DNA from: a virus
Lineage: Duplodnaviria; Heunggongvirae; Uroviricota; Caudoviricetes
Strand: one strand, 5' to 3'
DNA: 64,000 nt
IMG/VR virus record: IMGVR_UViG_2565956719_000002
Below the pieces are notes generated by a model. The model was not told the origin of the DNA and did no database searches. It was given only the letters and a program-made list of their open reading frames with translations. The position numbers and the translations under genes were made by a program. The stretch's first letter is position 1. Every line of letters starts with the position of its first letter. Below, in pieces: positions 56,368-57,366 of the stretch.

Positions 56368-57366
56368 TTATCCGTTACCGCGCGACGGTTTCTGCGTGAT
56401 AAACGTCTCAAGCATCTTTTCCGCAATTGCCGACCAGGTGTGACACTGGACCTTTTCAGCATTTTTCACGCGATCAACGCGAGCAATAACCTCATCCCAA
56501 TCAATCCGCGACTTGATAACCATATGGTTCACCAAAGCCAGGCGATCTGGCGGAAGGCAATCGGGAGGCGTTAATACCAACGCCCCGCACATTGCCGCCT
56601 CAAGTACAGTTAATCCAAGGCTTTCGGGATGCGTAACGATAAACACGTCACTCTTACGCAATTCAGCTGCAAATTCGGTTGCTGGTACCGGCGTCCGTCT
56701 GTATGGGGTTACCGATATATTCCCCGGATCAATGGTAATCAATCCGTCATCGGTCAACGTTCTGGCCTCATACGGAACGGTCAGACGCTGAAGGTTCATA
56801 AGGATACTTAAGGAGTGATCAAACCCACTAACATCAAATGCAGCGTGGTCTACAAAAATACGCAGAACATCGTCTGTTTTGGTTTCCAGATGGAACAGAT
56901 CCTGATTCGCTGCCCATCCAACATGTTTGTTAAAGCGATTATGACGCTCTAACCTGCCTGGATTATCCAGGTACCGCCAGGTATCATCGCGGACAGTAAA
57001 AGTAATATCGACTGGTGCCGAATCCAGCATAGAACCGTCGTATACCTGGGCTACCCATCCAGTGAATCGACGACGCAGTTGCACGCCTATTTCCCTGGGC
57101 ACCGTAGTAAAATACCGCAATCCTGGCGCTAAAATGGCTTTCGCAGAACACGAGGTCGCAGCGGTCAACACAGCTTCAACATAATCCTCCGGGCTTTCGA
57201 CGCCGGGGGAATATGGACGATGGTATTGCAATGTTACCCCTGCCTCACTAAAGGCGCAGGCCAGGTTGTAAGCCCACATTTCCGTATATGTTTTCACATC
57301 ACTGATAGCTTCAAATTTTCGCCCAATGATCAGGATGTTCATCGGCTTTTCCTCATTCCATTGCAT
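56368..57366 (-). CDS. Glycosyltransferase (GT4-like, retaining GT-B type)
   Basis: 332 aa; HPESLGLTVLEAAMCGALVLTPP carries the E-x7-E motif; start overlaps ban stop (TAATG). Confidence 0.55.
   Translation of the reverse strand: MQWNEEKPMNILIIGRKFEAISDVKTYTEMWAYNLACAFSEAGVTLQYHRPYSPGVESPEDYVEAVLTAATSCSAKAILAPGLRYFTTVPREIGVQLRRRFTGWVAQVYDGSMLDSAPVDITFTVRDDTWRYLDNPGRLERHNRFNKHVGWAANQDLFHLETKTDDVLRIFVDHAAFDVSGFDHSLSILMNLQRLTVPYEARTLTDDGLITIDPGNISVTPYRRTPVPATEFAAELRKSDVFIVTHPESLGLTVLEAAMCGALVLTPPDCLPPDRLALVNHMVIKSRIDWDEVIARVDRVKNAEKVQCHTWSAIAEKMLETFITQKPSRGNG

Follow-up and report, generated by a model that had tools for sequence, protein, structure and literature searches.

Between the helicase gene ban and the baseplate gene 5 of phage P1 lies a gene, dbn, whose RefSeq label reads "Dbn; function unknown, possible glycosyltransferase". 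Its P7 counterpart is called glt ("putative glycosyltransferase") and has a shorter coding sequence (CDS) of 287 aa; the RCS47 label is "putative glycosyltransferase, Dbn". CRISPR interference and knockouts classed dbn, as well as pmgO, pmgP and pmgQ, as nonessential (PMC10695390), and in a P1 library of 29 single-gene knockouts 24 mutants had no plaquing defect and an unchanged antirestriction (PMC9024508). The gene is dispensable for plaque formation, and the literature that we found on the function of dbn or pmgO/P/Q consists of essentiality tables and one transcriptome mention. Here we studied the dbn copy in a 64,000-nucleotide stretch of DNA from a virus of the Caudoviricetes (IMG/VR record IMGVR_UViG_2565956719_000002; this whole stretch is called the window below) and its relation to the genes pmgO, pmgP and pmgQ.

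The window comes from a P1-like phage. The 3.6 kb around dbn show 98.9% nucleotide identity to P1 records and 97.8% to P7, the encoded protein is 97–99.7% identical to P1 Dbn, and it matches PHROG 2518 (phrog_2518) at 1.3e-239. The open reading frame (ORF) stands where the initial annotation had placed it (56368–57366, minus strand, 332 aa), between ban and the convergent gene 5, with the synteny of P1. On these sequence grounds we identify it as the dbn gene of phage P1. P1 Dbn (YP_006544.1), P7 Glt and RCS47 Dbn are the same gene in the same position, on the same strand and with the same terminator; the window copy carries a few substitutions relative to the P1 reference and no substantive difference, and the database CDS uses the TAATG start discussed below. 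P1-like phage-plasmids that bear dbn are common, with 473 plasmid records matched.

The initial annotation had found a sugar transferase unexpected in a replication operon, a surprise that dissolves once the ORF is recognized as the known dbn, already labelled a possible glycosyltransferase. What is new is not the gene but its link to the pmgO/pmgP/pmgQ module and to WaaZ-like partners.

Genes that accompany dbn in phages and bacteria

Contigs with diverged dbn homologues were gathered, and blastp and tblastn served to compare the genes around these homologues (L numbers label the loci). The dbn homologue was contiguous with PmgO-, PmgP- and PmgQ-like genes in the lambdoid-type loci L004/L099, L005 and L007, in L103 and in phage EP_H11 (L011). 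In L107, a distant IMG/VR contig (31% identity), only PmgO-like and PmgQ-like genes were contiguous with it. The three neighbours encode an MptE-like protein of ~180 aa, a second MptE-like one (~200 aa) directly upstream of the dbn homologue, and a protein of ~220 aa directly downstream.

In the Citrobacter-type phage-plasmid lineage (L003, L006, L100, L105) the partners lie within 6–7 kb and are split as in P1. The window has the same arrangement: pmgO-pmgP-(ppp)-pmgQ occupy 47875–50433 on the same strand as dbn, 6–8 kb away. The exception was L106, with no module partners within the 8-kb flank of its dbn homologue. All three families searched in the jumbo phages RAS14 and CM1 (Dbn, PmgP and PmgQ) were present there.

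Thus, co-occurrence of the four genes within 10 kb was found in independent phage lineages, a count that rests on about a dozen of them; contiguity with the partner genes was seen in at least seven lineages besides that of the window. This gene-neighbourhood evidence indicates that dbn belongs with pmgO, pmgP and pmgQ in a four-gene module, which is split in P1-like phages. An IMG/VR scan with the family alignment gave 80 loci, all P1-like, single-protein IMG/VR scans with diverged homologues gave zero or two, a degenerate DNA pattern gave three and a scan of GTDB genomes three. The family is small: a set of 5.8 billion proteins contained 23 of its clusters (at 90% identity), and one of 1.84 billion contained 374 representatives (E <= 1e-3).

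Outside phages, a triad of GT4-N-like, MptE-(WaaZ-)like and Dbn-like genes was found in three loci: L101, Colwellia (L008–L010) and chromosome 3 of Brucella pseudogrignonensis (L015). L101 is a low-GC cluster adjoining pgi; it includes an O-acetyltransferase and encodes a Dbn-like protein with 52% identity to P1 Dbn, and megablast against complete E. coli genomes gave no match to it. Capsule export genes of the ATP-binding cassette (ABC) KpsM/KpsT/KpsE(/KpsD) type are also present in Colwellia L008 and Brucella L015. The MptE-like partner matches models of WaaZ, the transferase of the third 3-deoxy-D-manno-octulosonic acid residue (Kdo III), and E. coli WaaZ itself at 24–27% identity (E about 1e-9). 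In all three loci the dbn-like gene directly follows the WaaZ-like gene inside a surface-polysaccharide cluster. The pairing of Dbn-like and MptE/WaaZ-like genes is therefore conserved from clusters of the capsule or lipopolysaccharide (LPS) type to phages.

Several observations concern the partners themselves. In an alignment of the PmgQ family (alignment A2), residues D79, D81, H208, G209, P211 and P213 are invariant, and the PmgQ homologue of L004 is assigned to phrog_1962, "glycosyltransferase". The FHGxPRPW motif of PmgQ resembles the HxxGxxKPW signature of GT8 enzymes. The name "alpha-2,3-sialyltransferase" that PmgO bears goes back to remote similarity alone, and a misspelt product name of the PmgP family, "norphogenetic protein", has spread in RefSeq and nr. 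The pmgO and pmgP frames overlap by ~100 nt (49771–49873, minus strand), as in the P1 annotation; similar overlaps occur in other phages, for example in L004 (6352–6891 and 6843–7442), and are either conserved or the product of wrongly set starts or stops.

The phosphatase gene ppp is absent from the module outside P1-like phages and is probably not part of it. Only P1-like phages have phosphatase genes in or near the module, namely ppp and pap (45731–46237, minus strand), whose HAD-like product contains a DIDGT motif. The gene pmgM (50597–51175, minus strand), which immediately precedes the pmgN-Q operon, has a weak VRR-NUC match below threshold (E 3e-4) and is called a VRR-NUC domain protein in RefSeq. 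In RAS14, a Stenotrophomonas phage (L012, 4590–6248), and in CM1 a counterpart of the C-terminal domain of Dbn, 27% identical over residues 130–323, forms part of a 552-aa protein, which suggests a fusion of a Dbn-like domain with another domain.

Dbn as a predicted glycosyltransferase

Structure prediction, one of the checks proposed in the initial annotation, gave a confident GT-B model (AlphaFold 2 predicted local distance difference test score, pLDDT, 87.8). The E-x7-E motif that had been noticed in the sequence, HPESLGLTVLEAAMCG, is indeed present (E248 and E256 in the 332-aa numbering) and sits in the C-terminal Rossmann domain of this model. On its own the motif carries no weight, as at least one occurrence is found in 69% of shuffles of Dbn. 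However, both glutamates are invariant in 19 Dbn homologues. Among 47 relatives, the most distant at 21% identity, the second never varies and the first is retained to at least 90%. We consider the motif meaningful because it is conserved and placed in a GT-B fold. Profile alignment with hhalign also pairs it with the E-x7-E of WaaG, at a low probability of 2.9% (E 0.015).

Family assignment by profile is less clear. The match to Pfam Glycos_transf_1 (PF00534) reaches 25.1 bits, just short of the gathering score of 26.4, and covers residues 229–315 only, the NCBIfam matches are weak (11–14 bits), and a profile search of the PDB returned GT4 chains at E 0.16–0.64 only, together with a spurious match to the Rossmann domain of KtrA. 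The proposal of a GT4-type enzyme is supported in part, by this near-threshold Pfam match as well as by the fold and the conserved motif. One candidate relative, WaaS, which is of similar size and encoded near WaaZ in the waa locus of E. coli K-12, was rejected for lack of similarity (hhalign probability 0.3%).

Four residues do not vary across the 47 relatives (D173, H174, E256 and G261), and H246 and E248 vary hardly at all. The most conserved features of the wider Dbn family are the second Glu and the pair D173-H174, which follows directly on the first strand of the C-terminal domain; D183 is also conserved (D173 to D183, about 56818–56850, minus strand). The Arg/Lys pair that binds the donor diphosphate in GT4 enzymes is not evident in the family, and Asp/His and the conserved D183 are found in this region. 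Here the alignment is weak: hhalign sets R208/K209 of WaaG opposite D178/V179 of Dbn with a probability of only 1.8%, and only the E-x7-E region is aligned reliably. This suggests that the donor site of Dbn is atypical and that the donor may be unusual.

A basic pair that is not evident, the subthreshold Pfam match and the dispensability of dbn could point to a glycosyltransferase that has become an inactive pseudo-enzyme or is decaying. The substitution pattern argues otherwise. The median ratio of nonsynonymous to synonymous substitution rates (dN/dS) relative to the window allele is 0.10 across 50 alleles, and 79 of the 80 P1-like copies are intact; dbn is under strong purifying selection and is no pseudogene. 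Given also the invariant residues listed above and the confident fold prediction, we regard an inactive Dbn as very improbable.

No membrane span was predicted in Dbn, PmgO, PmgP or PmgQ (no hydrophobic 19-residue window reaches 1.6), and 18 out of 19 of Dbn and its homologues are acidic, with isoelectric points of 5.4–6.8. From the model and these predictions, Dbn is best described as a soluble 324-aa protein with the GT-B fold, a divergent glycosyltransferase of the GT4-like kind.

The ban operon and the start of dbn

The ban operon contains, in order, tRNA-Asn, tRNA-Thr, an SPFH gene, tRNA-Met(CAT), ban and dbn, behind a bivalent operator of the C1 repressor (Table 1). A search that allowed three mismatches found 15 C1 operator matches in the window, compared with 0.31 expected. 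The operator Oppp, ahead of the pmgN-pmgO-pmgP-ppp-pmgQ operon, departs from the consensus used at 4 of 17 positions and therefore fell outside this search. As C1 operators head both the ban-dbn and the pmgN-Q operons, the two halves of the module should switch on together upon loss of the repressor.

Inside ban, a consensus scan for promoters picked up a single promoter-like site, at the position of the annotated P2dbn. Since 4.1 such sites are expected by chance, an independent dbn promoter is unsupported. At its other end, the ban-dbn transcript likely stops at the GC-rich hairpin between dbn and gene 5, which would act as a bidirectional intrinsic terminator shared with gene 5. The consensus terminator scan missed this hairpin, as its T-run is absorbed into the stem.

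The first ATG of the 332-aa ORF overlaps the ban stop codon as TAATG, and the initial annotation built on this overlap a translational coupling of the two genes. The overlap exists, and dbn does share the ban operon, at a distance close enough for coupling. The overlapping ATG itself is probably not the start. In most of the diverged homologues of full length, the protein starts where Dbn has Met9 (MK/NILIIG), and the Met9 ATG (57342–57340) is preceded by a GAGGA Shine-Dalgarno site 7 nt upstream. Moreover, the direct ban-dbn junction is kept in 73 of the 80 P1-like loci, and in the other seven a 101-aa ORF is inserted between the two genes; its stop overlaps the Met9 ATG as ATGA, and homology resumes exactly at this ATG. 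These three lines of evidence make Met9, 21 nt after the ban stop, the most likely real start. The inserted ORF was located at 9699–10004 in L091 and in six other P1-like IMG/VR loci (of L092–L098).

The same comparison bears on whether Dbn works with the Ban helicase or in replication, for instance by glycosylating a replication protein. Adjacency to ban and co-transcription with it in P1-like phages, with most junctions direct, is all that speaks for such a role. Against it, an ORF separates the two genes in the seven variant loci, a helicase gene was called beside the dbn homologue in none of the non-P1 loci examined, and the conserved neighbours are other sugar-transferase-like genes. We find a replicative role hardly credible. 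The link to the replication operon would then be a matter of gene order in the P1 lineage, without functional meaning, the non-P1 homologues adjoining pmgO/pmgP/pmgQ-like genes or, in bacteria, WaaZ-like ones. Seen as part of a module, a sugar transferase in a replication operon loses its apparent oddity.

Upstream of ban, the operon differs from the P1 reference. An SPFH/Band-7 gene (59120–59947, minus strand; Pfam Band_7 1e-30) encodes a protein with a lipoprotein-like N-terminus, and beside it lies a hydrophobic 78-aa ORF at 59928–60164. In this region (59120–60164, minus strand) the two replace tciA/tciB/tciC of the reference, and MH422554 and MH445380 carry the same variant. The tRNA genes of the operon (59017–59092, 60896–60971 and 60974–61049, minus strand) have CAT, Thr(TGT) and Asn(GTT) anticodons, and the one with CAT is tRNA-Met according to ARAGORN and tRNA-Ile2 in the P1 annotation.

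Table 1. Positions in the window of dbn, its proposed partners and the elements of the two operons
Feature	Position	Strand	Basis or description
dbn CDS from probable start Met9 to stop	56368..57342	-	predicted 324-aa GT-B glycosyltransferase
HPESLGLTVLEAAMCG, E-x7-E motif (E248, E256)	56584..56631	-	translation, conservation
ban-dbn junction: ban stop TAA 57368-57366, overlapping in-frame ATG 57366-57364, GAGGA Shine-Dalgarno 57354-57350	57343..57368	-	sequence
pmgO, partner A (MptE/Maf/sialyltransferase-like)	49771..50433	-	Pfam MptE-like 5.7e-5; P1 annotation
pmgP, partner B (MptE/Maf/WaaZ-like fold)	49247..49873	-	structural resemblance to Maf, MptE, Cst-I
pmgQ, partner C (GT8-like GT-A by motif)	47875..48576	-	DxD and C-terminal FHGxPRPW
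ppp, lambda-type Ser/Thr phosphatase between pmgP and pmgQ	48573..49265	-	Pfam Metallophos 9e-16
ban, DnaB-like replicative helicase, upstream of dbn in the same operon	57366..58736	-	Pfam DnaB_C 5e-108, DnaB N-terminal domain 3e-35; P1 annotation
Bivalent C1 repressor operator (Oban/Op72), head of the ban operon	61705..61732		consensus matches with 0 and 2 mismatches; P1 annotation
C1 operator Oppp (Op83) ahead of pmgN-pmgO-pmgP-ppp-pmgQ	50574..50590	-	P1 annotation
11-bp GC-rich hairpin between convergent dbn and gene 5, likely terminator	56321..56347		RNA fold -17.6 kcal/mol, z -3.4; A-run/stem/T-run symmetry

Possible acceptors and comparison with known systems

Taken as a whole, we favour a reading in which Dbn is one step of a nonessential four-enzyme glycan pathway, with an envelope acceptor as the most likely target and no link to replication. 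We give it about an even chance (roughly 0.5). The pathway would be cytoplasmic and would build a short glycan upon derepression of the prophage. PmgO and PmgP would transfer ulosonic acid from a cytidine monophosphate (CMP)-ulosonic acid donor; to our knowledge, CMP-Kdo is the sole donor of this kind in E. coli K-12. Dbn would then add a sugar from a nucleotide-sugar to the ulosonic residue, or next to it. Its donor site would consist of the two conserved Glu and of the Asp-His that is peculiar to the family, where the C-terminal domain begins. PmgQ would add another hexose. The acceptor would most likely be a Kdo-bearing glycolipid of the envelope at the inner face of the inner membrane, such as the LPS inner core or a lipid of the capsule-linker type. 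As a result, surface receptors would be altered during lytic growth.

We prefer an envelope acceptor because the cellular relatives occur in a capsule/LPS context and the named sources of PmgP-family proteins are all Proteobacteria, a distribution that suits a chemistry linked to Kdo and LPS. Among the three targets put forward in the initial annotation (DNA, a virion protein or the host envelope), none is proven, and the genomic context favours a saccharide or envelope-type acceptor over DNA.

Several points weigh against this pathway. Dbn is much rarer than PmgP (23 vs 328 clusters), and phages phiNP, JK004 and XacN1 have PmgP and PmgQ without Dbn; Dbn is therefore an optional fourth step. 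The basic pair of GT4 enzymes is not evident, as described above. The target is assigned from gene neighbourhood only, and in lambdoid phages the module belongs to the late operon, where terminase follows directly, a position that suits decoration of the virion equally well. A single lytic cycle may also be too short for a remodelling of LPS to have an effect, and P1 lysogens or infections are not known to change LPS.

The late position leads to the second possible target. Glycosyltransferases of mycobacteriophages and giant viruses glycosylate virions, and the four enzymes could likewise decorate a capsid, tail or fibre protein in the cytoplasm before assembly, with effects on adsorption, stability or recognition by the immune system. 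The module of the lambdoid relatives sits, within the late operon, directly upstream of terS/terL and the head genes, and annotators of P1 and P7 have put pmgO-Q (hdmB-D) among the morphogenetic or "head morphogenesis" genes. The best structural match of PmgP is Maf, the protein O-glycosyltransferase for flagellin, and the best viral structural match of Dbn is a Tupanvirus glycosyltransferase (template modelling score, TM, 0.76–0.80). The Xanthomonas and Stenotrophomonas jumbo phages that carry the module, which we take to be strictly lytic, would gain little from lysogenic conversion. On the other hand, the P1 operons carry C1 operators and promoters of the sigma-70 type and not late promoters only, and the cellular relatives examined sit in polysaccharide clusters and not beside protein substrates. 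The paper on P1 virion proteomics, a study not designed to detect glycosylation, has no term beginning with "glycos", and the knockouts have no plaque phenotype (PMC9024508; PMC10695390). We consider virion glycosylation unlikely.

DNA is the third candidate. For phage clusters with sequential GT-A and GT-B enzymes, the attachment of Kdo, heptose and di- or trisaccharides to cytosine has been reported (bioRxiv 10.1101/2023.12.21.572611; PMC13326640), which is a precedent for both Kdo and multi-sugar chains. Dbn and its partners could in the same way attach a single sugar or an oligosaccharide to a modified base and protect the genome from nucleases, as in T4, and the P1 annotation gives Dmt, encoded just upstream of the ban operon, a possible additional role as C5-cytosine methyltransferase. 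Such a pathway requires that the phage also encode an enzyme for hydroxylation (either a ThyA homologue or 5mYOX/TET with a C5 methyltransferase), and none was called within ~8 kb of the module in the loci examined. Specifically, the deoxycytidine monophosphate (dCMP) hydroxymethylase/ThyA and 5mYOX/TET families were absent within ~8 kb of the dbn homologues in L003–L007, L099 and L100, by Pfam, and from the annotation of the two P1 regions; many neighbours have no Pfam entry, and P1 Dmt may be a C5 methyltransferase.

A structural comparison revealed no closer similarity to DNA glycosyltransferases than to other GT-B enzymes. T4 alpha-glucosyltransferase (AGT) ranks 22nd, below many GT4 enzymes that act on lipids or small molecules, and T4 beta-glucosyltransferase (BGT) lies outside the top 60. 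The acidic character of the Dbn family and the presence of its relatives in bacterial capsule loci also speak against DNA as the acceptor, as do the phenotypes: the 24 knockouts without plaquing defect kept their antirestriction (PMC9024508), and dbn, pmgO, pmgP and pmgQ are nonessential there according to a table in PMC10695390. Glycosylation of DNA thus seems improbable.

If the envelope pathway is real, it may reach further than P1. More tentatively, P1 and many temperate and jumbo phages of Proteobacteria could possess a self-contained four-enzyme route that turns host CMP-Kdo and uridine diphosphate (UDP)-sugars into a Kdo glycan on the LPS inner core or an envelope lipid during lytic growth, by which receptors would be remodelled or masked. 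We hold this broader picture to be possible, with the odds against it. If it is true, masking of receptors could exclude superinfection or spare the progeny from being trapped on debris, and phages would have a cytoplasmic route of surface conversion that is neither of the gtr type nor directed at the O-antigen. The Dbn family, with Asp-His in place of the GT4 basic pair, would then form a new glycosyltransferase subfamily.

P1 is widely used in bacterial genetics, and dbn, pmgO, pmgP and pmgQ are orphans in it; the split module joins them into a single testable pathway, which would also account for the silent single knockouts. Should the product be a Kdo-type glycan on the envelope, phages would have a new means of altering their own receptor. 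A glycan on DNA or on virions would extend two recently opened fields to a classical coliphage.

Among known systems, serotype conversion by gtrABC represents the O-antigen modifying enzymes with which the initial annotation had suggested a comparison. It relies on an integral-membrane flippase, a transferase acting at the periplasmic face and a bactoprenol-linked GT2 enzyme. The Dbn module lacks these features: its four proteins have no predicted membrane span, Dbn is modelled as GT-B and not GT2, and no GtrA or GtrB family member was found among the neighbours of the dbn homologues examined.

The virion glycosyltransferases of mycobacteriophages and giant viruses are, like the module, accessory and nonessential clusters of several glycosyltransferases, and the lambdoid relatives share their late-operon position. 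However, they have no sequence relationship with Dbn beyond the fold, no P1 virion protein is known to be glycosylated, and the P1 genes are under direct C1 control. T4 alpha-glucosyltransferase and the enzymes that build glycans on 5-hydroxymethylcytosine or 5-hydroxycytosine (5hmC/5hoC) are phage-encoded GT-B proteins like Dbn, and some of these clusters use several glycosyltransferases and Kdo. They differ from the Dbn module in that it has no base-hydroxylating enzyme alongside in the loci examined, an unspecific likeness in fold, an acidic Dbn and no reported antirestriction phenotype.

Retaining GT-B enzymes of CAZy family GT4 (BshA 6n1x, PimA 2gej, WaaG, WaaB) have the GT-B fold and the E-x7-E in common with Dbn, but are only 11–15% identical to it and longer (360–400 aa against 324 aa). 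What sets Dbn apart from them is the invariant Asp-His that follows strand 1 of the C-terminal domain, together with a basic diphosphate-binding pair that is not evident in the weak alignment. The bacterial clusters of Colwellia, Brucella pseudogrignonensis and L101 have full-length Dbn homologues that are 38–52% identical and the same pairing with an MptE-like gene as the phage module. They add ABC export genes (in two of the three), an O-acetyltransferase and other GT4-like genes, whereas the phage module has no exporter and carries PmgO and PmgQ instead.

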